From the NCBI GenBank assembly GCA_965218785.1, contig OZ244650.1, positions 960,001 to 1,024,000 of the forward strand: 64,000 nt of DNA, read 5' to 3'. A program made the position numbers and the translations under genes. Position 1 is the first letter of the stretch; every line of letters begins with the position of its first letter. The notes under the pieces were generated by a model that saw only the letters and a program-made list of their open reading frames with translations, had not been told where the DNA came from and searched no databases. This DNA comes from Nitrosopumilus sp. (GTDB taxonomy: Archaea > Thermoproteota > Nitrososphaeria > Nitrososphaerales > Nitrosopumilaceae). This document shows positions 1-33,046 of the stretch, piece by piece.

Positions 1-3000
1 GTTACAGTCAGATCTAACACGGCATCCTTTGATTCTGCCGGAACCACATCTGCTACCACAGTAGCAGTCCGCACGTCTGAAGAACTCTTTGGAGTGGCGG
101 ATTTTTTAAACTTTGAGATATCTGGCAACACGGTATCTGCTGCGATAATATCTGACCGTACCATAGCACTTACCGTGGATACGGAGATAACATCTGAGGA
201 TATGCTTACCGTATCCTATAAGGGCGACAACATACTAAACAGTCTGGATAACATCCTTGTACAATTTGAGGATAAACCCGTGACAAACAACGTGCCAGTT
301 ATTCCAGAAACCTCTTTGCCCCTTTCAGATAACTACCTAAGACACACCATGACGCATGTAGGCGGACAATATTACGTGTCAGGACATAATAGCTTGCGAT
401 ACGTTGATGACAGCCTAGAATATGATTATCATATGAATCTGTACCGCATAACTATTGATGGAATCCAACTAGAGGACACCGTCCAGCTGGAAATGGATCC
501 GATAATAGTAAACCCCCCTGAACTGTCGGATACCAACCCGCCATTTCCAGTCTCTTTTGCACCAATAGATGAAGATACGTTTGTAGCTGTGTATGGACAT
601 AATCAAGCATTAAACGTGTTGACATACGACATAATGTTGGTTACAGGCACCACTGATGATGCGGAGCTTGTTCCTTCGATTTCCAAGGTGAGCCTGGATA
701 CCGATGTGACCCCGTTTGATCCATCTCTTGTAAAATTCGATGATGACACGCTGGTACTTGCATATGCCGGCAGTGCAGGAGACGGGTATATCACGGCCAT
801 GTCTGTCTCGCAAACGGCCATAGAATTTGTAGGCTCGCCCCTGGAACATGATCCAGATCAGGGACGGTACAACTCGCTTGTAAAGCTGAATGATGATACC
901 GTGGTTCTGGCATATATGGGACAAAATGCCGACGGCCACATCAAGACATTTGATATTGGGACAGACAATACGATAATTCAGACGGATTCCCTTGAGCATA
1001 ATGAAACCGGAGACGTATCGTACAACTCGCTTGTAAAGGCAGATGATGATACCGTGGTTCTGGCATATACAGATTACAGTACTAACAGCGGACATTTAGT
1101 TGAATTTGACATAGATGACGACGGTATAATCACATCACCACGTGCCCCCCTGACGTATGTTGCCGTGGATAATACCGCACATGTCCCAGAGCGCCAGCAC
1201 TTTAACTCTCTTGTATTGGTGGATGATGGCACCCTGGCCCTGGCATACAGGGGTGCAGATGGCGACGGTTTTCTCCAGATATTTGATATGAGCAGTACTG
1301 GTCTGACTGCAAGGAATATTCTTGAGCATGACACAAGTTATGGTGCCTATAATGCCATGGTCAAAGTCAACCGTTCCACACTGGCACTTGTATACGGGGA
1401 AGCCCAGCGTGCAGTTGACGATCAGAGTCAGGTATCAAGTGCGATCAAGACACTCCAGGTTTCTGCAATTACAAATCTCCGCATCGAAATATCTGACTCT
1501 CCGACAATAACTGATGCCGCATCACTGCAACTGCACATTACCACCGCTGACACACTCACCATATCTGATGCCGTAACTGGCATGGGCAGTGTCGAAACAT
1601 CCGACTCTCCGACAATAACTGATGCCGCATCACTGCAACTGCACATTACCATCTCTGACACACCTGCCATATCCGATACCGTAACTGGCATGGGCAGCGT
1701 CGAAACATCCGACTCTCCGACAATAACTGATGCCGCATCACTGCAACTGCACATTACCATCTCTGACACACCTGCCATATCCGATACCGTAACTGGCATG
1801 GGCAGTACTGACACATCCGACTCTCCCGCAATAACTGATGCCGCATCACTGCAACTGCACATTACCATCTCTGACACACTCACCATATCTGATACCGTAA
1901 CTGGCATGGGCAGTACTGACACATCTGACTCTCCCGCAATAACTGATACCGTATCACTGCAACTGCACATTACCACCGCTGACACACTCACCATATCCGA
2001 TACCGTAACTGGCATGGGCAGTACTGACACATCTGACTCTCCCGTATTGGCCGATTCCGCATTACTGGAGATATCTGTCGCACTCTCTGACACACTCACC
2101 ATATCCGATACCGTAACTGGCATGGGCAGCGTCGAAACATCCGACTCCCCCGCAATAACTGATACCGTATCACTGCAACTGCACATTACCACCGCTGACA
2201 CACTCACCATATCCGATACCGTAACTGGCATGGGCAGTACTGACACATCTGACTCTCCCGTATTGGCCGATTCCGCATTACTGGAGATATCTGTCGCACT
2301 CTCTGACACACTCACCATATCCGATACCGTAACTGGCATGGGCAGCGTCGAAACATCCGACTCCCCCGCAATAACTGATACCGCATCACTGCAACTGCAC
2401 ATTACCACCGCTGACACACTCACCATATCCGATACCGTAACTGGCATGGGCAGTACTGACACATCTGACTCTCCCGTATTGGCCGATTCCGCATTACTGG
2501 AGATATCTGTCGCACTCTCTGACACACCTGCCATATCCGATACCGTAACTGGCATGGGCAGCGTCGAAACATCCGACTCCCCCGCAATAACTGATACCGT
2601 ATCACTGCAACTGCACATTACCACCGCTGACACACTCACCATATCCGATACCGTAACTGGCATGGGCAGTACTGACACATCTGACTCTCCCGTATTGGCC
2701 GATTCCGCATTACTGGAGATATCTGTCGCACTCTCTGACACACCTGCCATATCCGATACCGTAACTGGCATGGGCAGCGTCGAAACATCCGACTCCCCCG
2801 CAATAACTGATACCGTATCACTGCAACTGCACATTACCGCCGCTGACACACCTGCTATATCAGATGAATCAGACATGCAGACCATGGGTGCCATCAGCGG
2901 ATCTGACTCTCCGACAATAACTGATATCGTATCACTGCAACTGCACATTACCGCCGCTGACACACCTGCCATATCCGATACCGTAACTGGCATGGGCAGC

Positions 3001-4818
3001 GTCGAAACATCCGACTCTCCGACAATAACTGATACCGCATCACTGCAACTGCACATTACCGCCGCTGACACACTCGCCATATCCGATACCGTAACTGGCA
3101 TGGGCAGTACTGACACATCTGACTCTCCCGTATTGGCCGATTCCGCATTACTGGAGATATCTGTCGCACTCTCTGACACACCTGCCATATCCGATACCGT
3201 AACTGGCATGGGCAGTACTGACACATCTGACTCCCCCGCAATAACTGATACCGCATCACTGCAACTGCACATTACCGCCGCTGACACACTCACCATATCC
3301 GATACCGTAACTGGCATGGGCAGTACTGACACATCTGACTCTCCCGTATTGGCCGATTCCGCATTACTGGAGATATCTGTCGCACTCTCTGACACACCTG
3401 CCATATCTGATACCGTAACTGGCATGGGCAGCGTCGAAACATCCGACTCTCCGACAATAACTGATGCCGCATCATTGAAATTCCTCATCACATCCACTGA
3501 CACACCTGCCATCTCGGATGAATCAGACATGCAGATCATGGGTGCCATCAGTGGATCTGACTCCCCCGCAATAACTGATGCCGCATCACTGAAACTATCC
3601 GTCGCACTCTCTGATTCCCCTGTAATATCAGATGTGGTAAGCGGTATGGGAACCATTACTGAATCAGATTCCCCCGCAATAACTGATGCCGCATCACTGA
3701 AACTATCCGTCGCACTCTCTGATTCCCCTGTAATATCAGATGTGGTAAGCGGTATGGGAACCATTACTGAATCAGACTCCCCCGCAATAACGGACTCTGT
3801 ATCACTATTATCTACATCCCCCTCTCCGGATACAAATCCTCCACCTGTACCTCCGGTTACACCAACGACACCTGTTACTGTCCCATCCACTGAAACCGGT
3901 GGCGGTGACCGCGGCGGCGGTGGCGGCGGCGGTGGTGGCGGCAATGTCGGCGGCACCCGTGCCGGTATCGGCAATCCTGGAGGTCATGGAGGAGGAGGCC
4001 TGCGCTATGACGTGTCCTATAACTTTACATCCAACAACGTAAACGTACTGACTGATTTATCACAGATAAGAATAGAACCAAATACGCTCCTTACAATAAC
4101 GCCACATGTGCTGCCACTTGATGCACGTCAGAAGATCTTGCAGATGGAGGTAATCGTCACGGATAATTCAACACTGCAATATTCTGACGCCGTGATACAA
4201 TACACGTCACTTTCAAATGTTCTCACACATGACAAATGCAGTGGCAATGAACACAAGTCAAACCGTCTTTATGTCTGTGATACCTCTTCACTTGTATCTG
4301 AGACGCAGACATCGTACTCTGAATCCCGCACGCAGATCTCAAAGCAATTAAAAAGTATGATGATACACTTTGAAGAAGAATTTTCAGGCAGTCTCAGCAT
4401 ATTCCTGCATGATACCCGTGGAACGCTACTCTCTTCGCACAATAACACCACATATGATATTATTGTAGAATCGTCTGGGCCTAAACTAGAGTCTGTATCC
4501 TGGATGGATCCCGAACCGATCCCAGTTGATCCTGAACCTGTGGATGTGATTTACATGGATCCTGTTCTAGTCTCAATGGATCCTGAACCGATCCCGATGG
4601 ATCCTGAACCGATCCCGATGGATCCTGAACCGATCCCGATGGATCCTGAACCAACAGATGACCGTAACATCTTTGAAAAGTTCCTAGGATTATTACTATC
4701 GCTGTTTGGACTCTCAGATCTAGACCGAGTTTGGAATCAAATAATGATCACATCGAATTATTTGCAGATACAGTACAATTCCGGCATGACTGCGTTTGGG
4801 ATCTCCCATGTGCCCTGA
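1..4818 (+). CDS. Giant repetitive surface protein, paralogue A (5'-truncated by window): SwmB-like domain, beta-propeller of YNSLVKxDDDTVVLAY repeats, SDSP-repeat stalk, poly-Gly, shared C-terminal module
   Basis: Frame is open from base 1 (VTVRSNTASFDSAG...) into the 1574-aa ORF at 94. About six S-L-V-K-x-D-D-D-T-x-V-L-A-Y repeats. C-terminal domain clearly homologous to ORFs 19255 and 25004. Confidence 0.9.
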   Translation, partial: VTVRSNTASFDSAGTTSATTVAVRTSEELFGVADFLNFEISGNTVSAAIISDRTIALTVDTEITSEDMLTVSYKGDNILNSLDNILVQFEDKPVTNNVPVIPETSLPLSDNYLRHTMTHVGGQYYVSGHNSLRYVDDSLEYDYHMNLYRITIDGIQLEDTVQLEMDPIIVNPPELSDTNPPFPVSFAPIDEDTFVAVYGHNQALNVLTYDIMLVTGTTDDAELVPSISKVSLDTDVTPFDPSLVKFDDDTLVLAYAGSAGDGYITAMSVSQTAIEFVGSPLEHDPDQGRYNSLVKLNDDTVVLAYMGQNADGHIKTFDIGTDNTIIQTDSLEHNETGDVSYNSLVKADDDTVVLAYTDYSTNSGHLVEFDIDDDGIITSPRAPLTYVAVDNTAHVPERQHFNSLVLVDDGTLALAYRGADGDGFLQIFDMSSTGLTARNILEHDTSYGAYNAMVKVNRSTLALVYGEAQRAVDDQSQVSSAIKTLQVSAITNLRIEISDSPTITDAASLQLHITTADTLTISDAVTGMGSVETSDSPTITDAASLQLHITISDTPAISDTVTGMGSVETSDSPTITDAASLQLHITISDTPAISDTVTGMGSTDTSDSPAITDAASLQLHITISDTLTISDTVTGMGSTDTSDSPAITDTVSLQLHITTADTLTISDTVTGMGSTDTSDSPVLADSALLEISVALSDTLTISDTVTGMGSVETSDSPAITDTVSLQLHITTADTLTISDTVTGMGSTDTSDSPVLADSALLEISVALSDTLTISDTVTGMGSVETSDSPAITDTASLQLHITTADTLTISDTVTGMGSTDTSDSPVLADSALLEISVALSDTPAISDTVTGMGSVETSDSPAITDTVSLQLHITTADTLTISDTVTGMGSTDTSDSPVLADSALLEISVALSDTPAISDTVTGMGSVETSDSPAITDTVSLQLHITAADTPAISDESDMQTMGAISGSDSPTITDIVSLQLHITAADTPAISDTVTGMGSVETSDSPTITDTASLQLHITAADTLAISDTVTGMGSTDTSDSPVLADSALLEISVALSDTPAISDTVTGMGSTDTSDSPAITDTASLQLHITAADTLTISDTVTGMGSTDTSDSPVLADSALLEISVALSDTPAISDTVTGMGSVETSDSPTITDAASLKFLITSTDTPAISDESDMQIMGAISGSDSPAITDAASLKLSVALSDSPVISDVVSGMGTITESDSPAITDAASLKLSVALSDSPVISDVVSGMGTITESDSPAITDSVSLLSTSPSPDTNPPPVPPVTPTTPVTVPSTETGGGDRGGGGGGGGGGNVGGTRAGIGNPGGHGGGGLRYDVSYNFTSNNVNVLTDLSQIRIEPNTLLTITPHVLPLDARQKILQMEVIVTDNSTLQYSDAVIQYTSLSNVLTHDKCSGNEHKSNRLYVCDTSSLVSETQTSYSESRTQISKQLKSMMIHFEEEFSGSLSIFLHDTRGTLLSSHNNTTYDIIVESSGPKLESVSWMDPEPIPVDPEPVDVIYMDPVLVSMDPEPIPMDPEPIPMDPEPIPMDPEPTDDRNIFEKFLGLLLSLFGLSDLDRVWNQIMITSNYLQIQYNSGMTAFGISHVP
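1492..3810 (+). repeat. Coding tandem repeat: 54-bp (18-aa) units arranged as 108-bp dimers and 216-bp higher-order units
   Basis: GTAACTGGCATGGGCAG recurs every 108 bp (1573, 1681, 1789, 1897...). Peptide alternates SDSPxITDxxSLQLHITx and xDTxxISDTVTGMGSxxT. Confidence 0.95.
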
Positions 4819-5090
4819 AGAATGATGACATTCTGAATCTGCATGCAATCAAAAACAGGACAGATGACATCTTCTGTCATAAACGAATGTTCACACCATC
4901 TTGATCTGGAAAAAATACGCCGTATGCTCAATCAGTAGAATCTTTAGTAGATAACAGCAATTTGATAATGTAATTTTCTGTCTGTTATCTCTAAGGATTC
5001 TCCCGGATTGTGATCTATAAAGATTGTGGACGAATGGATCTTTGATGCCAGATAACGGTCATTTGTTGGGATGCATATCCTTGATTACGC

Positions 5091-6764: not shown

Positions 6765-6804
6765 AATATGATTCTGCGTTTACTATGATTTAGACCTGTT
6801 GGTA

Positions 6805-7407
6805 TTACCGTTTTATCAGTATCTGGTTTTCTAGTTCCGACAAGTACGCATCTATCTCTTCGGGCGTCTCTGCACCGTATAAGATCAGGATTCTGTCGTC
6901 TTCCATAACCTCATAATCCCTGATGTCTGAAACAGGCTCCCTGTTAATGAAGAATCTCAGCACGTTCTCATCCTGCGTACAGTAGGATCTTCCATCAGTA
7001 AACACGTAACACTGATCATCAAGACCTATCTTTATCGACTCGAATAGATATCCTAACTTGACTCCCGTGGCATGTTTGTGGACTGTCGTGCCGTCTCTTC
7101 CCTCAAAATGAATCCAGGGCGTCTTTATCTGATAAGCCTCGTTTGAAAAGTCAAACTGGTCCCCAAAAATCCTTACTAGTAATGCCGCATGATCATGTGC
7201 GCTGCCACGCGGTCCTACGTTCTCTGGCCCTCCGGCTTCTGCCCCCGGTTCCATGGTTACAAACAGGTATACAGAATATCCGACAATAACTCCTATTACT
7301 GCAAAGACACCCACTGCAATCAGTGTCTGCTTTCTCTTTGCCGCTGAATGTTTTGTAGCATAATTTTCACGTTTTTCTTCACGTTCCCTTCTTTCTTTTC
7401 GTCCCAT
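6805..7407 (-). CDS. Conserved thaumarchaeal membrane-anchored protein with His-rich extracytoplasmic domain
   Basis: Basic N-terminus, one TM helix, then HDHA, IHFE..VHKHA and a Cys pair. Function not assignable. Confidence 0.75.
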   Translation of the reverse strand: MGRKERREREEKRENYATKHSAAKRKQTLIAVGVFAVIGVIVGYSVYLFVTMEPGAEAGGPENVGPRGSAHDHAALLVRIFGDQFDFSNEAYQIKTPWIHFEGRDGTTVHKHATGVKLGYLFESIKIGLDDQCYVFTDGRSYCTQDENVLRFFINREPVSDIRDYEVMEDDRILILYGAETPEEIDAYLSELENQILIKR

Positions 7408-7870: not shown

Positions 7871-7920
7871 TATAACGAATTTGTTATATAACAAATTTGT
7901 TATATAACAAAAGTGTTATA
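7871..7920. promoter_or_regulatory. Triple tandem 16-bp palindromic element (TATAACAAATTTGTTA), probable operator array
   Basis: tataacgaatttgtta-tataacaaatttgtta-tataacaaaagtgtta-ta. The middle unit plus TA is a perfect 18-bp palindrome. It lies 8 bp before the ATG at 7929. Confidence 0.6.
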
Positions 7921-7928
7921 CAAATTAG

Positions 7929-9851: not shown

Positions 9852-9907
9852 CTGTATCTCCTTTAATCATACGAATATTAATTTTAATTGATTTGGCTGT
9901 TTTATAA

Positions 9908-10549
9908 TCACAACTCGTCAAATGCTTTTAGAAACGCCTCCAGCGGCTGGTTTCCCCTGATTGGGATGATTTTTTGATCATTGAAGACCAAAAACGACGG
10001 GGTGGCATCTATTCCTATCTCCCGCCCGAACTCGTAGAGTGCCTCCACCCTTTCCTGATGTCTTTGCTCGTCCAGACACGCATTAAACTCCGTCAGATTC
10101 AAACCCACATCCGATGCAAACCCGTCAAGCGAGTCCCTTGTTATCCATCCAGTCCTTTCACCACCCCAGTTTCTGTAGATTTCATCGTGATACTGCCAGT
10201 ATCTTCCCTGATCATCTGCACAGTAGGAGGCCTCTGCTGCCAATCTAGAGTCCGGACCGTTTAATGGAAAATCCTTGAAGATGAGTCTTACCTTTCCCGT
10301 ACTGATATGGTCCTGATAAATTACATCCAGCGTGCTTTGATGAAATCTGTAGCAATACGTGCATTGGTAATCACCCCACTCCAAAATCGTAATCTGTGCA
10401 TCTGCATCCCCCAATATCGGGGATCCACCATCAATTAATTTGGAGACGACCAACGGATTTGAATCGTCTTCTGCAAGATAGACTGCCAAAAATATTCCTG
10501 TTATGACCCCTACTGCTACGGGTATGAAAAGCAGGTAGGATTTCATCAT
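9908..10549 (-). CDS. DsbA-family thioredoxin-fold protein, membrane anchored
   Basis: WGDYQCTYC active site, cis-Pro ATPSF, N-terminal TM. ATG at 10549 preferred over GTG at 10588. Confidence 0.9.
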   Translation of the reverse strand: MMKSYLLFIPVAVGVITGIFLAVYLAEDDSNPLVVSKLIDGGSPILGDADAQITILEWGDYQCTYCYRFHQSTLDVIYQDHISTGKVRLIFKDFPLNGPDSRLAAEASYCADDQGRYWQYHDEIYRNWGGERTGWITRDSLDGFASDVGLNLTEFNACLDEQRHQERVEALYEFGREIGIDATPSFLVFNDQKIIPIRGNQPLEAFLKAFDEL

Positions 10550-10993
10550 GGATATGCCATCTGTTACAAGTATTAAATCTAGTAACACCCGTTCAGACTT
10601 TGGTTTTTAGAAATCTCCCCTCTTGTGGTTCTCTTGCAATGCTGTCGTTAATCATGATTTCGTGGTGTTTTACCACTTGTTTGCCCCATATGGTTTTTCC
10701 ATATTTTTGAATTGAAACACGTCTGTCTGAGCACAGTTCACTGATTGCTTTGTGTTTTTTTAGATGGATCCGTTTGAATTATTACTCTGCATGATCCCAT
10801 GGATCAATTATAGATCTGCTAATCATGCGGGATCGGACATATTTCTTATCACCTGATCTCCCACAGAACCGCCCATTTTAGTAATATTTTATGAAAAAAA
10901 TATCTCAAAAAGACAGGTATGTGGATCCTGCCCCTCGATCAGGTGTTTTCCTTATAAATTCTGCACGACAACCAAGAGCTTAAATATATTCAG

Positions 10994-22200: not shown

Positions 22201-24114
22201 GCATCAGTTCGACTCTCCGTCGCATTATCTGACTCCCCCGTCCTATCTGATACAGTAACTGGCATGGGCGCCGTCGCAGAATCCGACTCTCCTGTAATCG
22301 CAGATTCCACATCCGTTAAACTCTCCGTCGCATTATCTGACTCCCCCGCCCTATCTGATACAGTAACTGGCATGGGCGCCGTCGCAGAATCCGACTCTCC
22401 TGCAATCACTGACTCTGCATCCTTGAAATTCTTCATTGCATCTTTTGATACACCTGCCGTATCTGATCAACACGACATTCAAATCATGAATAACATCACA
22501 CAGGAAGACTCTCCCGTACTAGCTGACTCTTTCCTCCTTAAACGATCCCTTAACCCCACTGACTCCCCAGTCCTATCTGATGCGGTAGCTGGTATGGGTA
22601 CACTAAATGAATCCGACTCTCCCGTAATCGTCAATTCTGTATCATCTCAACTCTCCATTGCCCTCTCCGACTCACCCGTCATATCTGATACAGTAACTGG
22701 CATGGGCGCCGTCGCAGAATCCGACTCTCCCGTACTAGATGACTCTGCATCCCTGAAATTCTCAGTTGCCCTCTCCGACTCCCCTGTTCTATCGGATACC
22801 GTAACTGGCATGGGCGCCGTCGCAGAATCCGACTCTCCGACAGTCACTGACTCTGCCCTCCTTGAACTCTCCATTGCCCTCTCCGACTCTCCTGCAATGT
22901 CTGATACCGTAACTGGCATGGGCGCCGTCGCAGAATCCGACTCTCCTGCAATCACCGACTCTGCATCCGTTGAACTCTCCCTCAATCCCACAGACTCCCC
23001 CGTACTATCTGATGCTGTAACTGGCATGGGCACCCTTGCAGAATCCGACTTTCCGGTTCTATCTGATTCTGCAATAGTTCAAAAGACCCTCAATCCCACT
23101 GACTCCCCCGTCCTATCTGATACGGTAACTGGCATGGGCACCATCAGCGTATCGGACTCTCCGGTTCTATCTGATTCCGCATCATTAGTCTTGCCAGTAC
23201 CTCCAGATACCACTCCCCCAGAACCTCCATCTACACCGAGAACCACTGATCCGTCAGAGCGCAGATCCGGTGGCGGCGGTGGCGGCGGTGGCGGTGGTGG
23301 CAGCGGCAGCGGCAGCGGCAGCAGAGGAGGCGGTGGTCTAAACTATGACGTATCCTTTAACTTTACATCAAACAATGTAGACGTACTGACAGACCTCTCA
23401 CAGGTAAGAATAGAACCAGACACGCTCCTTACAATAACGCCGCATGTACTGCCAGTTAATGCACGCCAGAACATCCTAAAGATGGAGGTAATCCTCACAG
23501 ATAATGCAACACCGCAACATCAGGACGCCTTGATACAATATGAATTATTTTCAAACACTCTTACACGTGATGACTGCAGTGGCAATGAATATGAATCAGA
23601 CCGTCTTTACATCTGTAATGCATCCTCGCTCATATCTGAGAGGCAGACATCGTACTCTGAATCCCGCGTACAAATCTCAAAGCATTTTGAGAGTCTGATG
23701 ATATTCTTTGAAGAAGAGTTCTCAGGCAGCCTTAGCATATTATTACATGACACCCGTGGAACACTGCTCTCTTCACACAATTACACTTCATATGACATTA
23801 TCGTAGAACCAGTAGGCGGCAAACCAGAGCCTGCATCCGAGGTGGATCCCGAACCACAGCCCATACCCGTGGATCCCGAACCGGAACCCAAAGTCATACC
23901 AATGAATCCCGAACCAGAACCCAAAGTCATACCAATGAATCCCGAACCGGAACCAGAACCAGAAGTCATACTCATGAATCCAGAACCCAAACCCGTCCCA
24001 ACAGATCCGGAACCAGCAGATGACCGCAACATCTTTGAGATGTTTGCAGACTGGTTCCAGTCACTGTTTGGACTCTTGGAATCCCAGTACAAACTGATTC
24101 AAAACATACTGTGA
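19255..24114 (+). CDS. Giant surface protein, paralogue B: signal peptide, SwmB-like domain, 12 NHL repeats, Ig-like domain, SDSP stalk, shared C-terminal module
   Basis: 12 P-x-G-I-A-V...D-x-x-N-x-R-I-Q-I-F-D repeats counted. Stalk at about 21745-23190, poly-Gly, DDRNIFE...WFQSLFG end. Confidence 0.93.
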   Translation: MILTDKKQFSEMCSAYYDTSKIIIIMGVFSAVLLGLGGIESSYSQTAEEDVTAPVLLHVRTTSDTTILLTFSLHHSQIHNTMPDAGFQVSGVTAGNTISNVRVLGPWITVTLENPIIPGDIVRISYLGNSIVNGRDDKLEHFEDVLVINRVHVSFGGLSHLEGHLNRPAGIAVTSTNIFVADFGNNRIQIFDLDGGFVKAFGESGSGDGSFDSPSGIAVTSTHIYVTDTGNDRIQIFDLDGGFVKAFGESGPEDGSFDSPSGIAVTSTHIFVTDTKNDRIQIFDLEGGFVKAFGESDSGDGGFSFPQGIAVTPTNIYVADTKNDRIQVHDLNGNVVNKFGRSSDLSNFVAPHGIAVTSTNIFVTVISDLIYKFDLDGNFINTFSNSGLSVGRLIDPQGIAVTPTNIYVSDTGNDRIQIFDLEGNFVSKFGDSNFKEGAFFGARGIAVTPTNIYVADGGNDRIQIFDLEGNFVKAFGESGSEDGNFDSPHGIAVTSTNIYVADADNGRLQIFDLNNNFVNKLSEFSFDDEFFHIIYDVAVTSTNIYVAVGVNDRIQIFDLEGNLVSKFGRFGFDDGDFFDPFGVAVTSTNIYVVDIGNHRIQIFDLDGSFVKAFGESGSGDGSFNSPQGIAVTPTNIFVIDTGNDRIQIFDLEGNFVSKFGEFVTPPFRYPVGITVNYDNVFVTAGRYNPIRMFDMSAILPIPVVFSVSAPDGEYGWGDTIPITVTFSRPVTVTGMPELALNAGNTAIFEQVLPEGKMVFRYTLARTDFAENLNYVDEGSLTLKGGTILSSYDDTPADTTLPDLTAFNSLGRTSSVLVDGDALFPRDILDVSDSASSASTFGISDAPIISDSASSASTFGISDAPIIPEITDSATLAVRFAISDSVDFTDTVTGMGAVAESDSPVIADSTSVRLSVALSDSPVLSDTVTGMGAVAESDSPVLTDSASLKFYIISFDTPAVSDQHGIQIMNKNTEEDSPAITDSASVRLSVALSDSPVLSDTVTGMGAVAESDSPVIADSTSVKLSVALSDSPALSDTVTGMGAVAESDSPAITDSASLKFFIASFDTPAVSDQHDIQIMNNITQEDSPVLADSFLLKRSLNPTDSPVLSDAVAGMGTLNESDSPVIVNSVSSQLSIALSDSPVISDTVTGMGAVAESDSPVLDDSASLKFSVALSDSPVLSDTVTGMGAVAESDSPTVTDSALLELSIALSDSPAMSDTVTGMGAVAESDSPAITDSASVELSLNPTDSPVLSDAVTGMGTLAESDFPVLSDSAIVQKTLNPTDSPVLSDTVTGMGTISVSDSPVLSDSASLVLPVPPDTTPPEPPSTPRTTDPSERRSGGGGGGGGGGGSGSGSGSRGGGGLNYDVSFNFTSNNVDVLTDLSQVRIEPDTLLTITPHVLPVNARQNILKMEVILTDNATPQHQDALIQYELFSNTLTRDDCSGNEYESDRLYICNASSLISERQTSYSESRVQISKHFESLMIFFEEEFSGSLSILLHDTRGTLLSSHNYTSYDIIVEPVGGKPEPASEVDPEPQPIPVDPEPEPKVIPMNPEPEPKVIPMNPEPEPEPEVILMNPEPKPVPTDPEPADDRNIFEMFADWFQSLFGLLESQYKLIQNIL
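21745..23190 (+). repeat. Coding 54/108-bp SDSP stalk repeats of paralogue B
   Basis: Recurrent GTAACTGGCATGGGCGCCGTCGCAGAATCCGAC. Confidence 0.93.
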
Positions 24115-25003: not shown

Positions 25004-28000
25004 ATGATCCTGACGTATAAAAGACAATTCTCAGAGATATACAACACCAATTCTGGCACATCAAGGCTAATCATAATTATGGGGATTCTCTCTACTGTAC
25101 TGTTTGGGCTGGGAGGCATCGAATCATCCTATTCTCAGACTGTGGGGGATAACACCGCACCTGGCATACTGCATGCAGAGACAACATCTGCCAGTACCAT
25201 CCTGCTTACCTTCTCTGAAGAAATTACTGATGTATCTGATGCGGATTTTGAGGTCTCAGGTGTTACTGCCGGAAACGACATATCTGGTGTGACGCTGTCT
25301 GGTGATAGTATTCAAGTGACACTTGTGAACTCGATAGCATTGGAGGATATCATCAGCATATCCTATCTTGGCAACTCTGTTGTGGATCTTGCAGGTAACA
25401 GTCTTGGATCCTTTGAGGGGATTAGGGTTGTAAACGGCATCCACGTTGTTTTTGGAAATCCGGCTCACACTGGAAACAGTTTAAACGAACCATCCAGCAT
25501 AGCTGTCACCTCCACAAACATTATTGTAGTAGATTCTAGAAATGACAGAGTACATGTGTTTGAACTGAATCCAGATCCGAATTTGAAACCTACTTTTCGC
25601 AAAACATTCGGTGGATCCGGTTCCGGGGACGGCGCCTTCTTAGCTCCACGGGACATAGCAGCCACTGCCGCAAACATCTATGTTGCAGATACCGGAAATG
25701 ACAGAGTACAGGTATTTAATCTGGAAGGTACTCTTCTCAACAAGTTCGGTCAATCCGGTTTCGCAAACGGCAATTTCAATTCCCCATCCAGTATAGCTGT
25801 CACCTCCACAAACATCTTTGTAGTAGATTCTGGAAATGACAGAGTACAGGTATTTGATCTGCAGGGTAATTTTGCCCGCACATTCGGCGAATCAGGTATC
25901 GGGGATGGCCATTTCAATTCCCCATCCGGCATAACAATTGACTCTACACGCATACTTGTAGCAGATTCTGGAAATGACAGAGTACAGATATTTGATCTGG
26001 ACGGTACTTTTCTCAGCAAGTTCGGCGGATTTGGTTCCGGGATGGGAGTTTACTCATATCCACAAAGCATAGCTGTCACCTCCACACAGATCCTTGTAAC
26101 TGATATTGAAAATCACAGAATAAACACATTTAATCTGGATGGGAGTGATTCCAACGCATTTGGTGGATTAGGTTCTGAGGGCGGCGCCTTCTCATCTCCA
26201 CGAGACATTGTAGCCACCTCCACAAACTTCTATGTAGCAGATACCGGAAATGACAGAATACAGATATTTAATTTGTCAAGAAATTTTGTCAATGAGTTTG
26301 GTGAATCAAGTTCTGCAGACGGCACTCTCTCATTTCCATATGGCATAACAGTCAATTCTACACGCATCCTTGTAGCAGATGCCGGAAATGACAGAATACA
26401 GACATTTGATTTGAACGGTACTTTTCTCAGCAAGTTCGGTGGATCAGGTGATGAGGAGGGCACTTTCTCAGATCCACAAGGCATAACAGTCAATTCTACA
26501 AACATCATTGTAGTAGATAGCAGGAATCACAGAGTACAGATATTTGATCTAGACGGTACTTTTCTAGATGAGTTTGGTGAATTTGGTACCGGGGAAGATG
26601 ATATCGAGGAAGATGATTTATTCTTCCCACTAGGCATAGCAGTCAACTCCACAAACATCATTGTAGCCGATCTTGGAAATCGCAGAATAAAGGTACATGA
26701 TCTGGACGGTACTTTTGTCAGTGAGTTTGGTAGCAAGGGTTCTGGAAACGGTCAATTCTTATCTCCGCGAGACATAGCAGTCAACTCTACACACATCCTT
26801 GTAGCAGATTCCCGTAATAGCAGAATACAGGTATTTGATCTGGACGGTACTTTTGTCAGCACATTCTCTGGATTAAACGATGAAGGCAACTCTCTCTTAA
26901 TTCCATCCGGTATCGCAGTCACCTCCACACACATCCTTGTAGTAGATTCTGTAAATGGCAATATACAGATATTTGATTTGAATGGAAATCTTCTCAACGA
27001 GTTTGGTGAATTTATTACTCCGCCATTTGAATCCCCGGTTGGAATAACTGTAAACAGTGATAACGTCTTTGTTACAGATGGCATTGATAACACGGTGCGC
27101 ATATTTGATTTATCCACAATACTGCCAGCCCCTGCAGTGCTTTCTGTCTCTGCACCCGTCGGGGAGTATGGTTGGGGGGATACTGTTCCAATCACCATGG
27201 TCTTTAACCTGCCTGTTGTGGTAACAGGAGTGCCGGAACTCGAATTGAATAACAGTAAGGTTGCCGTCTTTGACCAGGTATTGCCTGGAGGCAAGATGAT
27301 ATTCAAATATACCGTGGCTCGTGCAGATTTTACCGAGAATCTCAACTATGTTGATAAAGACTCACTCATACTACAAGGCGGTACAATAGTTTCATCTTAT
27401 GATGAGACTCCTGCTAACAAAGCACTTCCGGCGCTTAGTACACTAGACACGGATGTACTGACCAACGGCAGTACTTTTTTTCTACGTGATATTCTGACTG
27501 TCTCTGACTCTGCATTATCTGCCAGCACATTTGACATAGCTGATGCGCCGGTTCTCTCTGATTCTGCATCATCTATCCGTATCCTTGACATATCTGATGC
27601 TCCGGTTCTCTCTGATTCTGCATCATCTGCCAATATCTTTGACATAGCTGATGCGCCGGTCCTCTCTGATTCTGCATCATCTGCCAATATCCTTGACATA
27701 TCTGATGCGCCGATCCTCTCTGATTCTGCATCATCTGCCAATATCCTTGACATATCTGATGCTCCGGTCCTCTCGGAGATGACAAAAATTGACGCGCGGC
27801 CAGAATTCGTATCTGCCATCGTTTCGGATCCTGAAACCATTAGAATTACAATATCCGAACCAGTTCGGGGGAATCCATTACCGGAAGAATTTACCGTATT
27901 TGATAATATAGTCTCTAATACAGTCATTAGTACAGTCACTAAGGTTGTTTTATCTGGGAATATCATAACACTTACGGTGGATACTCCAATTGCCTCAGGC

Positions 28001-31000
28001 GACCCCGTCACCGTCTCATATCCCGTCAATTCGATCACCGATTCGATCACCGATGTGACAGGTAACGTACTTCGGTTTACCAACGCCGTAGCAAACGACG
28101 CCGTGACAATAACGGCTGTATGGAATGATCCGGACAATGCAGATGAAGTGCTCTCCGTAGGCGATACGCTTACCATAACGGTTTCAGAAGATACGGACAG
28201 GCCCGGCGGAACAGGAATTCAGGACAAACTCCTGATTGATGCAGTCTTTACCTTTGAGAATCCGATCGGTGCAGACTATACTGGAATATGGGTTGATGTC
28301 CGGACATTTGTAATTACCATAACTAATGCCACAGATGCTACGGCTATAGTCGGCGAAGACGTCTCACCGTTTACTGGAATAAGGTTTCTTAGAGATCTAG
28401 GTACTACGGATGATGTATCGTTTCTGAGGCCGCAGGGAGTGGCTGCAAACTCTACAGGCTTTATCTATGTTGCAGATACAGGGAACGACATCGTCCGGAT
28501 ATTTGATCCTTCAGGTCAGTATGTCGGCAATCTGGCTCCAGGTCCAGATGGGTTTGATAATCCACGGGGATTGGCGACAAACTCTACTGATTTTATCTTT
28601 GTTATAGATGGCTCTCCTGGCAGTAACGTCCAGATATTTGACCCTTCAGGCCAGCATGTTGGAAACTTGGAAAACCCAAACGCTCAAGACGGCGGCAGGC
28701 CATTTAGTAATCCTGGGGATGTAGAAGTCAGTCCTGATGGTTTTATCTTTGTTACGGATTCTAGTAGTGGTTCAGTACAAAAGTTTGATCCGTCTGGCAA
28801 CTTTATTAAAGCATTGAGTCTGCCGAGTGACCCTGGTTTTAATTTTCCACGAGGCATTGCAGTCAACTCTACGGGGGCAATCTATGTCTCCGGAATTGAA
28901 ATTAATGGACCAACTCGTAATAATGTAGTTCGGATATTTGACTCTGATGGGATACATCATGGGGATCTTGTTTTTAGGGGTAGTGAACGATTTGGAGCGC
29001 TGAATGGAATAGCAGTAAACTCTACTGATTCTATTTTTGTTTCAGATAGAGAAGTCATCAGGGTATTTGGTCCAGATGGGGTATATTCCGAACTATTTAG
29101 TCCTCTGGGAGGCGTCCTGCTTCAACGTCCTGCACACCTTTCAATATTTGGCGATGATCAATTTGTAATTGCAGATACAGATGAGCACCTGGTGCAGATA
29201 TACGGACGCACCATTATACGGGATGATGAAAGAACTCGAGTACTATTTAGCGTATCCGTTAAAACCAGCGGAGACTTTGGCATAGAACCGCCAAAGTTTA
29301 ACGAAATAAACTCCCCTGAAATAACAGACAGTGCAACACTGGCAGTAAGATTTGCGGTATCTGACTCTGTAGATTTTACTGATACTGTAACTGGTATGGG
29401 CAGCGTTGCAGATTCTGATTCTCCTGTAATCGCAGATTCCGTATCCGTTCGACTCTCAGTTGCCATCTCTGACTCTCCAGTCCTAACTGATGCTGTAACT
29501 GGCATGGGCGCCGTCGCAGAATCCGACACTCTGACAATCACTGATTCCGCATCAGTTAAACTCTCAGTTGCCATCTCTGACTCTCCAGTCCTAACTGATA
29601 CCGTAACTGGCATGGGCACCGTCGCAGAATCCGACTCTCCGGTAATCACTGATTCCGCATCCCTGAAATTCTCCCTCAATCCATCTGACTCCCCCGTCCT
29701 GATTGATACCGTAACTGGCATGGGCACCGTCGCAGAATCCGACTCTCCGGCAATCGCTGATTCCGTATCCATGAAATTCTATATTACATCTTTTGATACA
29801 CCTGCCGTATCTGATCAACACGACATTCAAATCATGAATAACAACGCACAAGAAGACTCTCCGGCAATCGCAGATTCCGCATCAGTTAAACTCTCCATTG
29901 GCCTCTCTGACTCTCCCGTCCTGGCCGATACCGTAACTGGCATGGGCACCGTCGCAGAATCCGACTCTCCTGTAATGGCCGATTCCGTATCAGTTCAGAT
30001 CTCAGTTGCCATCTCTGACTCCCCCGTCCTGGCCGATACCGTAACTGGCATGGGCACCGTCGCAGAATCCGACTCTCCTGTAATCACTGATTCCGCATCC
30101 CTGAAATTCTTCCTCAATCCATCTGACTCCCCCGCCCTGGCCGATACCGTAACTGGCATGGGCACCGTCGGAGAATCCGATTCTCCAGTAATCACTGATT
30201 CCGCACTCTTTGAATTCTCACTTGTGTTATCTGACTCCCCCACCCTGGCAGATACCGTAACTGGCATGGGCACCGTCGCAGAATCCGACTCTCCAGTAAT
30301 CACTGATTCCGCATCAGTCAAACTCTCCATTGGTGTCTCTGACTCCCCCGTCCTGGCTGATACCGTAACTGGCATGGGCACCGTCGCAGAATCCGACTCT
30401 CCTGTAATCACTGATTCCGCATCCCTGAAATTCTTTATTACATCTTTTGATGCACCTGCCGTATCTGATCAACACGACATTCATATCACTAATGTCGTCA
30501 CACACGAAGACTCTCCGGCACTATCTGACTTTGTCTTCCTTAAGCGATCCCTTAATCCTACCGACTCCCCCGTCCTATCTGATGGGGTATCTGGCATGGG
30601 CACACTCAGTGAATCCGACACTCCTGCAATCACCGATTCTGTATCTGCTCAACTCTCCATTGGTGTTTCTGACTCTCCAGTCCTGACTGATACCGTAACT
30701 GGCATGGGCACCGTCGCAGAATCTGACTCTCCGGCACTATCTGACTCTGCCGTTCTTCAACACTCCATTGGTCTCTCTGACTCCCCCGTCCTATCTGATA
30801 CCGTAACTGGCATGGGCGCCGTCGGCGAATCCGACTCGCCGGCAATCACCGATTCCGCACTCTTTGAACTCTCCATTGCCTTCTCTGACTCTCCAGCATT
30901 ATCTGATACCGTATCTGGCATGGGAGTCGTCGGCGAATCCGACTCGCCGGCAATCACCGATTCTGTATCCGCTCAACTCTCCATTGCCCTCTCCGACTCC

Positions 31001-33046
31001 CCCGTCCTGACTGATACCGTATCTGGCATGGGCGCCGTCGGCGAATCCGACTCGCCGGCAATCACCGATTCTGTATCCGCTCAACTCTCCATTGGTGTTT
31101 CTGACTCCCCCGTCCTGACTGATACCGTATCTGGCATGGGCGCCGTCGGCGAATCCGACACTCTGGCAATCACCGATTCCGCACTCTTTGAACTCTCCAT
31201 TGCCCTCTCCGACTCCCCAGTCCTATCTGATACCGTATCTGGCATGGGCGCCGTCGCAGAATCCGACACTCCTGCAATCACCGATTCTGTATCCGCTCAA
31301 CTCTCCATTGCCCTCTCCGACTCTCCGGTCCTATCTGATGCGGTGTCTGGCGTGGGCACTCTAGGCGAATCTGATTCCCCAATAATCACCGATTCTGTAT
31401 CCGCTCAACTCTCCATTGCCCTCTCCGACTCCCCAGTCCTATCTGATACCGTATCTGGCATGGGCGCCGTCGCAGAATCCGACTCGCCGGCAATCACCGA
31501 TTCCGCACTCCTTGAATTCTCCCTCAACCCCACTGACTCCCCCACACTATCTGATACCGTAACTGGCATGGGCGCCGTCGCAGAATCCGACTCGCCGGCA
31601 ATCACCGATTCCGCATCCGTTCAACTCTCCCTCAACCCCACTGACTCCCCAGTCCTATCTGATTCAGTAACTGGCGTGGGCACTCTTGGCGAATCCGACA
31701 CTCCAACAATCGCCGATTCCGCATTCCTGAAATTCTCACTTACCCTCTCTGACTCCCCAGTCCTGACTGATACCGTAACTGGCATGGGCGCCGTCGCAGA
31801 ATCCGACTCTCCTGCAATCGCCGATTCCGCATCCGTTCAACTCTTCCTTGCCACATCTGACTCCCCCGTCCTGGCTGATACCGTAACTGGCATGGGCACC
31901 ATTGCAGGATCCGACACTCCTGCAATCACAGATTCCGCACTCCTTGAATTCTCCCTCGACCACACTGACTCTCCCGTCCTATCTGATACGGTAACTGGCA
32001 TGGGCGCCGTCGCAGAATCCGACTCTCCAGTAATCACTGATACTGCAATAGTTCAAAAGACCCTCAACCCCACCGACACCCTCATACTATCTGATACCGT
32101 AACTGGCATGGGCGCCATCAGCGTGTCTGACTCTCCGGTTCTATCTGATTCCGCATCGTTAGTCTTGCCAGTACCTCCAGATACAACTCCGCCAGAACCT
32201 CCATCCACACCGAGAACCACTGATCCATCAGAGCGCAGATCCGGCGGCGGTGGCGGCGGTGGTGGCAGCAGCGGCACCAGGGGAGGCGGCGGTCTAAACT
32301 ATGACGTATCCTTTAACTTTACATCAAACAATGTAGACGTACTGACAGACCTCACACAGGTAAGAATAGAACCAGACACGCTCCTTACAATAACGCCGCA
32401 TGTACTGCCAGTTAACGCACGCCAGAACATCCTAAAGATGGAGGTAATCATCACTGATAACTCGACACAGCAACATCCGGACGCCTTGATACAATATGAA
32501 TTATTTTCAAATACCATTACACGTGATGACTGCAGTGGCAACGAATACGAATCAGACCGTATTTACGTCTGTGATGCATCCTCGCTCTTATCTGAGAGAC
32601 AGACATCATACTCTGAATCCCGCGTACAAATCTCAAAGCATTTTGAGAGTCTGATGATATTCTTTGAAGAAGAGTTCTCAGGCAGCCTTAGCATATTATT
32701 ACATGACACCCGTGGAACGCTGCTCTCTTCGCACAATTACACTTCATATGAGATTATCGTAGAACCAGCTGGCGGTAAACCAGAGCCTGCATCCGAGGTG
32801 GACCCCGAACCCATACCCGTGGATCCAGAACCACAACCCATACCCGTGGACCCAGAACCACAAGCCATACCGGCAGACAATACGCCCGAACCCGCACCAA
32901 TACCGGCAGACACGGCACCACAACCAGTACCAATGGATCCAGAACCAACAGATGACCGTAACATCTTTGAGAAGGTTGTAGACTGGTTCCAGTCGCTGTT
33001 TGGGTTTCTAGTATCCCAGTACAAATCGATTCAAATTATACCGTGA
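25004..33046 (+). CDS. Giant surface protein, paralogue C: as B plus an extra SwmB/Ig-like and 6-NHL module and a longer stalk
   Basis: 2680 aa, 12+6 NHL repeats counted. N- and C-termini closely homologous to ORF 19255. Confidence 0.93.
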   Translation: MILTYKRQFSEIYNTNSGTSRLIIIMGILSTVLFGLGGIESSYSQTVGDNTAPGILHAETTSASTILLTFSEEITDVSDADFEVSGVTAGNDISGVTLSGDSIQVTLVNSIALEDIISISYLGNSVVDLAGNSLGSFEGIRVVNGIHVVFGNPAHTGNSLNEPSSIAVTSTNIIVVDSRNDRVHVFELNPDPNLKPTFRKTFGGSGSGDGAFLAPRDIAATAANIYVADTGNDRVQVFNLEGTLLNKFGQSGFANGNFNSPSSIAVTSTNIFVVDSGNDRVQVFDLQGNFARTFGESGIGDGHFNSPSGITIDSTRILVADSGNDRVQIFDLDGTFLSKFGGFGSGMGVYSYPQSIAVTSTQILVTDIENHRINTFNLDGSDSNAFGGLGSEGGAFSSPRDIVATSTNFYVADTGNDRIQIFNLSRNFVNEFGESSSADGTLSFPYGITVNSTRILVADAGNDRIQTFDLNGTFLSKFGGSGDEEGTFSDPQGITVNSTNIIVVDSRNHRVQIFDLDGTFLDEFGEFGTGEDDIEEDDLFFPLGIAVNSTNIIVADLGNRRIKVHDLDGTFVSEFGSKGSGNGQFLSPRDIAVNSTHILVADSRNSRIQVFDLDGTFVSTFSGLNDEGNSLLIPSGIAVTSTHILVVDSVNGNIQIFDLNGNLLNEFGEFITPPFESPVGITVNSDNVFVTDGIDNTVRIFDLSTILPAPAVLSVSAPVGEYGWGDTVPITMVFNLPVVVTGVPELELNNSKVAVFDQVLPGGKMIFKYTVARADFTENLNYVDKDSLILQGGTIVSSYDETPANKALPALSTLDTDVLTNGSTFFLRDILTVSDSALSASTFDIADAPVLSDSASSIRILDISDAPVLSDSASSANIFDIADAPVLSDSASSANILDISDAPILSDSASSANILDISDAPVLSEMTKIDARPEFVSAIVSDPETIRITISEPVRGNPLPEEFTVFDNIVSNTVISTVTKVVLSGNIITLTVDTPIASGDPVTVSYPVNSITDSITDVTGNVLRFTNAVANDAVTITAVWNDPDNADEVLSVGDTLTITVSEDTDRPGGTGIQDKLLIDAVFTFENPIGADYTGIWVDVRTFVITITNATDATAIVGEDVSPFTGIRFLRDLGTTDDVSFLRPQGVAANSTGFIYVADTGNDIVRIFDPSGQYVGNLAPGPDGFDNPRGLATNSTDFIFVIDGSPGSNVQIFDPSGQHVGNLENPNAQDGGRPFSNPGDVEVSPDGFIFVTDSSSGSVQKFDPSGNFIKALSLPSDPGFNFPRGIAVNSTGAIYVSGIEINGPTRNNVVRIFDSDGIHHGDLVFRGSERFGALNGIAVNSTDSIFVSDREVIRVFGPDGVYSELFSPLGGVLLQRPAHLSIFGDDQFVIADTDEHLVQIYGRTIIRDDERTRVLFSVSVKTSGDFGIEPPKFNEINSPEITDSATLAVRFAVSDSVDFTDTVTGMGSVADSDSPVIADSVSVRLSVAISDSPVLTDAVTGMGAVAESDTLTITDSASVKLSVAISDSPVLTDTVTGMGTVAESDSPVITDSASLKFSLNPSDSPVLIDTVTGMGTVAESDSPAIADSVSMKFYITSFDTPAVSDQHDIQIMNNNAQEDSPAIADSASVKLSIGLSDSPVLADTVTGMGTVAESDSPVMADSVSVQISVAISDSPVLADTVTGMGTVAESDSPVITDSASLKFFLNPSDSPALADTVTGMGTVGESDSPVITDSALFEFSLVLSDSPTLADTVTGMGTVAESDSPVITDSASVKLSIGVSDSPVLADTVTGMGTVAESDSPVITDSASLKFFITSFDAPAVSDQHDIHITNVVTHEDSPALSDFVFLKRSLNPTDSPVLSDGVSGMGTLSESDTPAITDSVSAQLSIGVSDSPVLTDTVTGMGTVAESDSPALSDSAVLQHSIGLSDSPVLSDTVTGMGAVGESDSPAITDSALFELSIAFSDSPALSDTVSGMGVVGESDSPAITDSVSAQLSIALSDSPVLTDTVSGMGAVGESDSPAITDSVSAQLSIGVSDSPVLTDTVSGMGAVGESDTLAITDSALFELSIALSDSPVLSDTVSGMGAVAESDTPAITDSVSAQLSIALSDSPVLSDAVSGVGTLGESDSPIITDSVSAQLSIALSDSPVLSDTVSGMGAVAESDSPAITDSALLEFSLNPTDSPTLSDTVTGMGAVAESDSPAITDSASVQLSLNPTDSPVLSDSVTGVGTLGESDTPTIADSAFLKFSLTLSDSPVLTDTVTGMGAVAESDSPAIADSASVQLFLATSDSPVLADTVTGMGTIAGSDTPAITDSALLEFSLDHTDSPVLSDTVTGMGAVAESDSPVITDTAIVQKTLNPTDTLILSDTVTGMGAISVSDSPVLSDSASLVLPVPPDTTPPEPPSTPRTTDPSERRSGGGGGGGGSSGTRGGGGLNYDVSFNFTSNNVDVLTDLTQVRIEPDTLLTITPHVLPVNARQNILKMEVIITDNSTQQHPDALIQYELFSNTITRDDCSGNEYESDRIYVCDASSLLSERQTSYSESRVQISKHFESLMIFFEEEFSGSLSILLHDTRGTLLSSHNYTSYEIIVEPAGGKPEPASEVDPEPIPVDPEPQPIPVDPEPQAIPADNTPEPAPIPADTAPQPVPMDPEPTDDRNIFEKVVDWFQSLFGFLVSQYKSIQIIP
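29314..32165 (+). repeat. Coding 54/108-bp SDSP stalk repeats of paralogue C (a further five 54-bp SDSASSANILDISDAPVL units lie at about 27500-27775)
   Basis: Recurrent GATACCGTAACTGGCATGGGC and GAATCCGACTC with 108-bp period. Confidence 0.93.

Follow-up and report, generated by a model that had tools for sequence, protein, structure and literature searches.

The DNA analyzed here, hereafter the window, is a 64,000-nucleotide stretch of a Nitrosopumilus genome (assembly GCA_965218785.1, contig OZ244650.1, positions 960,001 to 1,024,000), designated G000:C1:960001-1024000 in our numbering, where G000 is this genome of 1.99 Mb in two contigs. Three open reading frames (ORFs) on its plus strand, termed A, B and C, are best interpreted, with a probability that we put at roughly 55%, as members of a paralogous family of Sec-exported giant mosaic proteins in which a C-terminal cassette tethers exchangeable cargo to the cell envelope. 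This cassette, which comprises a Pro-rich segment, a poly-Gly run, a domain of ~165 amino acids (aa) that we call the base domain, an acidic spacer and a short tail, is the sole invariant block of the family.

The ORF listing places A at <1-4818, B at 19255-24114 (1619 aa) and C at 25004-33046 (2680 aa), as given in a preliminary description of this DNA. C is a tandem paralogue of B, and B has a signal-like segment at its N-terminus. The part of A within the window (1-4818) represents the last 1605 codons of a frame of 4927 codons, measured stop to stop, that is open to window position -9965. The earliest start codon of this frame is a TTG at -9923, which precedes a hydrophobic segment ending in ..AHAQ.

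All three translations share the same order of parts, in which SDSP repeats are followed by the Pro-rich segment, the poly-Gly run, the base domain, a (D/N)PEP spacer and the tail. The base domains carry the pattern (G)L.YDVS.NFTSNN ... C.G.E ...(R).Y.C ... HDTRGTLLSSHN, and the C-terminal motif is DDRNIFE..(V)DWFQSLFG. The base domain of B is 93% identical to that of C (E 1.7e-109) and 74% identical to that of A (E 4.5e-82; 171-172 aa), a similarity far beyond chance. Thus, the single C-terminal chassis originally proposed for A, B and C is borne out, with a base domain somewhat larger than the ~150 aa first estimated. In A, the base domain (3997-4491, with the Pro-rich and poly-Gly segments directly upstream) is a predicted immunoglobulin (Ig)-like beta-sandwich with a Cys pair, and the tail unit at 4645-4710 (PEPTDDRNIFEKFLGLLLSLFG) is followed by 35 extra residues beyond ...SLFG. 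In B, the base domain (23335-23829), whose sequence was used for modeling, the acidic (D/N)PEP spacer (23830-24006) and the tail unit (24007-24072; ...DDRNIFEMFADWFQSLFG) precede 13 extra residues, and C likewise has 13 residues after its tail unit (32939-33004; ...DDRNIFEKVVDWFQSLFG), with its base domain at 32291-32785. All features listed for the three ORFs lie on the plus strand.

The family is larger than the three members first described. A tblastn search of G000 with the base domain of B recovers eight full copies (51-100% identity over 171-175 aa; E 5e-54 to 4e-117) and two further partial matches. The eight full cassettes end open frames of 1623, 2682, 3579, 4301, 4927, 5374, 6504 and 13079 codons, which score E 1.8e-117 to 2.3e-136 against their own joint profile. 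A ninth giant of 4313 codons (C1:642624-655565) has the same type of N-terminus together with the spacer and tail and lacks the base domain, bringing the G000 count to eight full members, one that has just the spacer and tail, and two fragments. Together, the nine giants occupy 139,155 nt, or 7.0% of G000, and their G+C content is 46-51% versus 40.6% genome-wide. A hydrophobic N-terminal segment that resembles a Sec signal peptide and ends in ..AHAQ, ..ANAQ or ..SYSQ is present in seven of the nine. Of the remaining two, one is a frameshifted gene and the other the 13079-codon frame, which has no assigned start.

Other loci in G000 carry pieces or damaged versions of the same parts. A 1606-codon ORF (C1:267365-272185) ends in a variant of the tail, with small Cys loops ahead of it. 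The frameshifted member (C1:835520-852154) has a signal-like N-terminus and several frameshifts at 839.5-841.4 kb, across which NHL and Ig homology runs on in three frames, and is either a pseudogene or the product of assembly errors. Two orphan cassette fragments were also noted: an inverted base-domain piece between two giant genes ~12 kb upstream of the window (C1:947712-948119, minus strand), and a free-standing base-domain end with spacer and tail (C1:707909-708298, plus strand). Their presence suggests recombination or decay among the paralogues. The longest frames are unusually large for prokaryotes, with 13,079 codons at G000:C1:1227890-1267129 (minus strand) and 18,713 codons near position 1066673 of contig C1 in the related genome G373, which is introduced below.

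To characterize the base domain, we aligned 32 copies from three genomes: G000; G373, a congeneric Nitrosopumilus metagenome-assembled genome (MAG; OZ244579.1); and G068, a Cenarchaeum-like genome from another genus. The preliminary description recognized neither the base domain nor the stalk as a named family, and no Pfam or NCBIfam model assigns the stalk, base domain, spacer or tail. When a known Pfam or TIGRFAM family was specifically sought for the base domain, the best Pfam match among the 32 copies had an E of 0.029, short of the threshold of 0.01. Likewise, neither A, B and C nor the full giants show a Pfam or NCBIfam family in this region, in searches that left arCOG, InterPro-only and CDD models outside their scope, and a base-domain profile finds 0 matches among PDB sequences at E <= 1. 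Nine residues (P36, M50, E51, Y69, C81, C94, G131, D139 and G142) are invariant in all 32 copies, and the invariance of C81 and C94 fits the presence of an extracytoplasmic disulfide.

Structure prediction by domain, which had been proposed at the outset, was carried out on the base domain of B. With the 32-sequence alignment, AlphaFold2 yields an all-beta model of 12 strands (pLDDT 89, pTM 0.85). When this model is compared to the PDB with Foldseek, the only matches are sandwiches such as p53/p63/p73 DNA-binding domains, nectin IgV domains and cohesins, with low TM scores of at most 0.49 and a best E of 7e-4. An independent fold search returns Ig V-set and ZP-C domains with a best Z of 8.9 (113 residues, rmsd 2.9) and ten rows at Z >= 8, where a best Z of 7-8 is typical for this search tool when there is no true match. 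The result fits the Ig-like sandwich class and gives no evidence of homology. From this model, the base domain is predicted to be a generic Ig-like sandwich that probably contains a disulfide and cannot be assigned to any family.

The remaining parts of the cassette differ in what is conserved. The poly-Gly run comprises 13-20 Gly residues in A, B and C and 13-29 in the eight full-cassette members, and a run of 4 is found in the giant that has only spacer and tail. Spacer length was measured in 27 of the 32 modules across the three genomes (the anchor patterns failed in five) and ranges from 65 to 87 aa with a median of 74. Its composition is 28% Pro and 26% Asp plus Glu, with 5% Lys plus Arg. 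The type of repeat varies by copy (DPEP, PETPPTK, PEIPV and others), such that length is kept as sequence drifts. An extended chain measures ~0.3-0.35 nm per residue, and from this figure the spacer would reach about 22-26 nm if extended.

The tail comprises a helix of 15-17 aa at or near the C-terminus. For its 15-residue core, Eisenberg hydrophobicity averages 0.40 and the helical moment averages 0.50, and the observed moment is reached by a median of 0.6% of shuffled sequences. Within the last 45 aa, the longest run free of charged, polar (N/Q/H/S/T) and Pro residues is 3-6 aa. Thus, the tail appears to form an amphipathic helix and not a transmembrane segment. Its position was scored in 29 of 32 modules, three having been missed by the pattern, and three or fewer residues follow its final Gly in 21 of these and more than three in the other eight. 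Several G373 copies carry tandem spacer-helix units, with two to three detected by motif scan and up to four visible by eye. To judge from this arrangement, the units look like a multivalent binder and not like a cleaved signal.

The regions upstream of the cassette vary widely, as revealed by local profile searches across the nine giants. NHL repeats (PF01436) are found in B (E 7e-47, 155.6 bits) and C (E 4e-74, 241.7 bits), well beyond the Pfam cut-off of 20 bits, and eight of the nine giants contain NHL regions. In B, these repeats extend from 19750 to 21468 (aa 166-738) and form ~12 blades, whereas C has a first region of ~12 blades at 25427-27133 (aa 142-710), both being found by Pfam and profile search, and a second of ~6 blades at 28418-29233 (aa 1139-1410) found by profile search. 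These residue numbers run from stop to stop and exceed ATG numbering by 4 aa in B and 2 aa in C. The 12 and 18 NHL repeats previously counted in B and C are therefore roughly correct.

The head of A was originally described as a propeller of YNSLVK-type repeats, and this is only part of its structure. The window portion of A gives no match to NHL or to any other Pfam family, and full-length A scores 346 bits for NHL, with four NHL regions in the part upstream of the window. Within the window, positions 286-1527 (aa 3418-3831 of full A, by profile search) encode a repeat domain of ~430 aa, here in its second copy, which contains about seven YNSLVK.DDDT.VLAY-like units. This domain occurs in one to six copies in six of the nine giants, and its ~seven repeats, counted by eye, suggest that it is probably a seven-bladed propeller. 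The copy in A matches no family. A sequence search of the PDB gives Photorhabdus PLL2 lectin as its best match at E 0.023, which is not significant and serves as a lead only. In the ESM Atlas, the A propeller and the base domain fall only among unnamed clusters with low recognition.

Linkers of ~105 aa with an Ig-like character are present in many copies per protein in all nine giants, and some correspond to Big_12 or SWM_repeat in Pfam. A further domain of ~126 aa (...GECFIN...L.IWT.HFT.FG) directly precedes the Pro-rich and poly-Gly segments in five of the nine giants. It is missing from A, B and C, where the stalk abuts the cassette. The giants are thus strings of up to six ~430-aa propellers, several NHL propellers and many Ig-like linkers. 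The head-stalk-base plan put forward earlier applies only to the smallest members, whereas the giants are mosaics in which the stalk can be undetected or the ~126-aa domain intervenes. The more general proposal of a modular architecture, with a conserved C-terminal chassis under varied N-terminal cargo, holds throughout and extends to a Peptidase_S8 subtilase in Cenarchaeum symbiosum.

The SDSP stalk is present in A, B and C as stated before. Its true period as measured by TRF is 108 nt, or 36 aa, which corresponds to two 18-aa SDSP halves and not to a single 18-aa unit. The arrays lie at 1483-3791 in A (18.4 + 2.2 copies), 21919-23162 in B (11.4 units) and 29379-32041 in C (24.5 units). Profiles detect the stalk in seven of the nine giants, and because it is undetected in two, we place it outside the invariant chassis. 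An SDSP-type stalk is found in 26 of 401 Nitrosopumilaceae genomes, always in large frames, and in G068 it lies directly upstream of cassettes. Stalk matches at 16-19% identity are probably compositional. A shorter repeat of 54 nt (18 aa, SDSASSA..F.ISDAP.L) stands ahead of the main stalk, with 5.1 copies in C (27501-27774) and 2.1 in B (21745-21857). Long antisense frames on the minus strand within the repeat arrays of A (1428-3974, 848 aa) and C (26752-28176 and 29158-29772) are most likely by-products of repeat composition and not genes.

The preliminary description also proposed a profile search of this genome and its relatives. In a sample of 401 Nitrosopumilaceae genomes, the full cassette is present in three (G000, G373 and G068) with varied cargo, and the same picture is seen among 41 relatives. 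G373 has nine full cassettes in frames of 2674-18713 codons, and G068 has 32 matches in 31 frames of 623-12016 codons. The open frames sum to ~64,500 codons in G373 (~8% of 2.36 Mb) and ~97,800 codons in G068 (~14% of 2.0 Mb). In one 725-codon frame of G068 (C1:406699-407874), the base-domain profile matches twice in tandem. The cassette was not found in many one-contig genomes of the same genus with ~99% completeness, and absences from fragmented MAGs should be read with the caveat that such giant genes may fail to assemble.

The tail is more widespread, with matches in 12 of 401 genomes at E <= 0.01. There are many copies in the three cassette genomes and single copies in a few others. In four of the latter (G018, G320, G394 and G002), the single copy ends a protein of 1400-1650 codons in which an EPEP-type spacer precedes ...DIFGMIKGWFESLFGVF(V/F), and three of these four proteins also have a small Cys loop. 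Since spacer and tail occur in these relatives without the base domain, they look older than it. A tree of the 32 base domains, in which 15 copies are a sample from G068 and whose root is not known, places the G068 copies on one side (100/100). Copies from G000 and G373 interleave, which indicates that the family existed before the two Nitrosopumilus genomes diverged, and A, B and C fall in a subclade (98/95) with two G373 copies. Judged by this tree, the Nitrosopumilus family appears to have expanded separately from the Cenarchaeum set.

Beyond these genomes, a profile of the eight cassettes finds 79 matches at E <= 0.001 among 1.84 billion representative proteins. Seventeen start within the first 24 profile positions and pass the base domain, reaching position 201 or later. 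Those in full-length proteins end at or near the C-terminus, and a few rows look like fragments. Of the other matches, four are fragments or partial and the rest involve only the Pro-rich spacer. The 17 comprise 12 named C. symbiosum proteins, mostly annotated as 'hypothetical', and five metagenome or assembly proteins. Three metagenome proteins (P0010, P0011 and P0018; ~490-713 aa) have a signal-like start, a Ser/Thr-rich region, a ...GEC.ID...L.VWT.HFT.FF domain, poly-Gly, base domain, spacer and tail, with an additional Cys loop in P0011, and may come near to the system in its minimal form. A word-indexed search with the B cassette, restricted to longer proteins, yields none at E <= 0.001 among 7997 candidates, which is weak evidence, and a related-locus search with the eight-sequence alignment reached only the congeneric MAG.

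The closest relatives are proteins of C. symbiosum that have long been publicly available with their cassette part unannotated. These homologues (ABK77277, ABK78418, AAC62699, CENSYa_0582, _0654, _0816, _0842, _0846, _0848, _0917, _1361 and _0566) have the poly-Gly run, a base domain with the Cys pair, an acidic Pro-rich spacer and a ...WF(R/A)SLFG end at the extreme C-terminus. They are annotated as 'hypothetical', 'RTX family exoprotein' or 'subtilisin-like serine protease', and none has an annotation for the base domain. Base-domain identity to the family described here is ~28-36%, and the cargo differs, with Pfam assigning Peptidase_S8 subtilase, SGL/Lactonase/WD40-type propellers and Big_5. 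Locus L045 of G068 encodes the same C-terminus as ABK77277.1.

The combination of signal-like N-termini, a disulfide-type Ig domain, a fixed-length acidic spacer, an amphipathic tail and diverse cargo, with neither a sortase signal nor a corresponding enzyme, argues for a tether. The amphipathic helix would attach to the membrane surface or to an envelope protein, and the stiff acidic spacer would bridge a fixed distance across the pseudoperiplasm and S-layer to an Ig-like base domain at its outer end. From there, the poly-Gly hinge might let the variable cargo of NHL and other propellers, Ig-like linkers and SDSP stalk swing outside the cell, where it would bind ligands. According to the accessible text of one study, negative charge lines the pores in the S-layer of Nitrosopumilus maritimus, the S-layer protein is highly negative at its membrane-proximal end, and how the layer is anchored has yet to be settled (PMC11153153). 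It is conceivable that the acidic spacer threads through or beside such pores. We infer the surface location of the giants, a partner for the helix, passage of the spacer through the S-layer and binding of ligands or a host by the cargo. Display beyond the S-layer, adhesion and host recognition, which the preliminary description had suggested, are likewise putative roles.

Several observations weigh against the tether. The matches to the base fold are at background level, and the fold therefore says nothing specific about function. A model of the whole cassette made by AlphaFold2 with eight sequences has a pLDDT of 47.5 and only the C-terminal helix (233-258) as a usable part, so that the relative placement of base domain, spacer and helix is beyond its reach. 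The accessible text of PMC11153153 and PMC11082331 does not give the width of the envelope, which leaves the spacer-as-ruler argument without a comparison value. The extra residues after SLFG in A, B and C imply that a free C-terminus is not required and that another mode of action is possible. Apart from other giants, no partner gene recurs within 4 kb of ten tail-bearing genes. Finally, a short motif conserved at the extreme C-terminus of many paralogues is also typical of a processed sorting signal.

This last point leads to the main rival explanation, which we regard as unlikely. The tail or the whole cassette could be a C-terminal sorting signal for an unknown enzyme or transporter that removes it after export, the protein then becoming covalently attached to lipid, glycan or the S-layer. 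Analogous arrangements would be PGF-CTERM/ArtA, PEP-CTERM/exosortase and the C-terminal domain of the type IX secretion system (T9SS). As do substrates of archaeosortases and exosortases, the giants bear one short C-terminal signature on many secreted paralogues with unrelated cargo, including an enzyme (8-9 proteins in G000, 9 in G373 and 31 ORFs in G068), and the motif lies within three residues of the end in most modules scored. However, the tripartite end of PGF-CTERM and PEP-CTERM proteins, in which a motif is followed by a transmembrane helix and a basic cluster, is not seen. The cassette tails end ...SLFG(L) without Arg or Lys, have no hydrophobic run of transmembrane length, and form an amphipathic helix that, unlike these signals, is sometimes internal or repeated, as in the tandem units of G373. 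Moreover, A, B and C do not stop at the motif but continue for another 13-35 aa. Their C-termini match no sorting-signal model in NCBIfam, and no candidate enzyme recurs beside the genes. The exosortase/archaeosortase family PF09721 is found in none of the three cassette genomes, in a search that gave a positive control in M. jannaschii and did not extend to rhombosortase- or myxosortase-like enzymes.

Like the cassette, the T9SS domain places a beta-sandwich close to the C-terminus of varied secreted proteins; unlike the cassette, it belongs to a bacterial outer-membrane system. The T9SS model TIGR04183 does match B at residues 315-343 (25 bits, cut-off 23) and C at 1185-1221 (20.9 bits), inside NHL regions and not at the C-terminus. 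Similarly, the model for ScyF-type NHL PEP-CTERM proteins (NF035926, cut-off 350) scores 335.8 bits with B and 349.4 bits with C from their NHL stretches, and neither protein has a PEP-CTERM end.

Compared with both the tether and the sorting signal, two further readings are less likely. In the first, which we consider distinctly improbable, the proteins would be released, and the cassette would self-assemble through helix-helix or helix-base contacts into an extracellular matrix or fibers. Amphipathic helices often oligomerize, tandem helix units are found in G373, and the devotion of 7-14% of a genome to such proteins fits a structural material. Weak cohesin-like Foldseek rows also hint at a peptide-binding sandwich, with TM scores of only 0.27-0.33. 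Nonetheless, the conserved spacer length is better explained by a fixed gap, and the proposed contacts are purely putative.

The second concerns the integrity of the sequence itself. Gene B sequence is present in four public runs from three studies (shares 0.47-0.73), none of them an RNA run, in contigs that match it at 95-100% identity, mostly >=99%. These short contigs are interrupted within the NHL, stalk and poly-Gly repeats, and the gene is not covered end to end by any of them. They show that the sequence exists in other data sets, with long-range assembly beyond their reach. That A, B and C are chimeric assemblies or decaying pseudogenes without present function, as their highly repetitive nature, those contig breaks, the one frameshifted member and the two cassette fragments of G000 might suggest, is very hard to reconcile with open frames of 1619-13079 codons that far exceed chance, the same part order in two other assemblies (G373 and G068), the orthologue-like interleaving of G000 and G373 copies on the tree, the residues kept in 32 of 32 base domains and the matching contigs from three studies.

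With a tether as the preferred reading, other known systems provide instructive comparisons. Giant RTX adhesins such as LapA, MpIBP and SiiE resemble beads on a string and have a module dedicated to anchoring. Comparable giant surface adhesins, Giant1-5, are described for Apilactobacillus kunkeei in the accessible part of PMC12863079. The proteins described here resemble giant bacterial adhesins in having thousands of residues, a separate retention module and presumed ligand binding far out, and in taking up several percent of a small symbiont genome. They differ in that the organism is an archaeon, which has an S-layer and lacks an outer membrane, and in that the anchor is C-terminal and has another fold. 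Pfam assigns neither HemolysinCabind nor a related family of the RTX/type I secretion system to any member. The name 'RTX family exoprotein' of ABK78418 is the depositor's, and Pfam finds only Big_5 in this protein.

The spacer recalls the Pro-rich spacer of TonB, in which a charged X-Pro repeat serves as a stiff element across an envelope compartment. An NCBIfam TonB model matches residues 1494-1587 of B (E 0.0015, 18.4 bits versus a cut-off of 315). This likeness is compositional only, and the cassette has neither the TonB C-terminal domain nor an ExbBD context. Models of MSCRAMM SD-repeat adhesins (ClfA, SdrC/D) reach 15.7-81.4 bits against cut-offs of 999-2500 and only on the Ser/Asp-rich stalk, which again reflects composition.

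A description of the cassette was found neither by literature searches nor in the accessible text of PMC7848895, PMC6697440, PMC3387779 or PMC4158269, with supplements outside the search. Two of these (PMC7848895, PMC6697440) compare sponge Thaumarchaeota, and their accessible text refers to NHL and other eukaryote-like repeats and not to the cassette. The accessible part of PMC4158269 lists arCOG08821, a 'membrane protein, expanded in Thaumarchaeota', which might or might not overlap the cassette family. What is new is thus an undescribed anchor cassette on modular giant surface proteins, whereas modular anchoring of giants is itself known.

The genes near A, B and C have housekeeping functions as judged by Pfam: IlvD, aRF1, a DsbA-like thioredoxin, CbtA, a phosphonate ABC transporter, a PurP-like protein, AspRS, GatA/GatB, an acyl-CoA synthetase and an aminotransferase. 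The DsbA-like thioredoxin (9908-10588, minus strand) lies between giant genes and could serve the Cys pair of the base domain. G+C content is 44-55% over the giants and their neighbors (1-40000) versus 33-43% over 40001-64000, and the genome mean is 40.6%. The low-G+C half encodes a Fic/DOC protein (62961-63839, minus strand), a TPR-repeat protein (43795-45051, plus strand), a PD-(D/E)XK nuclease (46546-47211, minus strand) and several ORFs without a family. The second contig of G000 (C2) is 3706 nt long and has a G+C content of 43.9%.

A broader proposal can be offered only tentatively. These proteins might represent an unrecognized form of archaeal surface display, in which a non-covalent, sortase-free C-terminal tether, with its helix at the membrane and its acidic spacer in a negatively charged S-layer pore, would present dozens of giant ligand-binding or enzymatic proteins encoded by 7-14% of the genome in certain Nitrosopumilaceae, including the sponge symbiont C. 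symbiosum. How ammonia-oxidizing archaea retain secreted proteins at the surface is largely open, and even the anchoring of the S-layer is unresolved as far as the accessible text of PMC11153153 goes. The presence of the cassette on 8-31 giants per genome provides a searchable handle, and a family model would re-annotate many 'hypothetical' giants. The cassette also marks the part to use for localization, pull-down and peptide-binding work.

Given the shares of the three genomes that they occupy, the giants represent a major cost that comparative studies of fragmented MAGs will have missed. The restriction of the full cassette to three of 401 genomes, together with single tail-only proteins in a few relatives, suggests that certain lineages elaborated a tail that already existed and expanded it massively. 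One of the three carriers of the cassette is C. symbiosum, and a link to sponge symbiosis is suggestive and not established. Lineage-specific expansion of the tail would constitute a testable route to host association.

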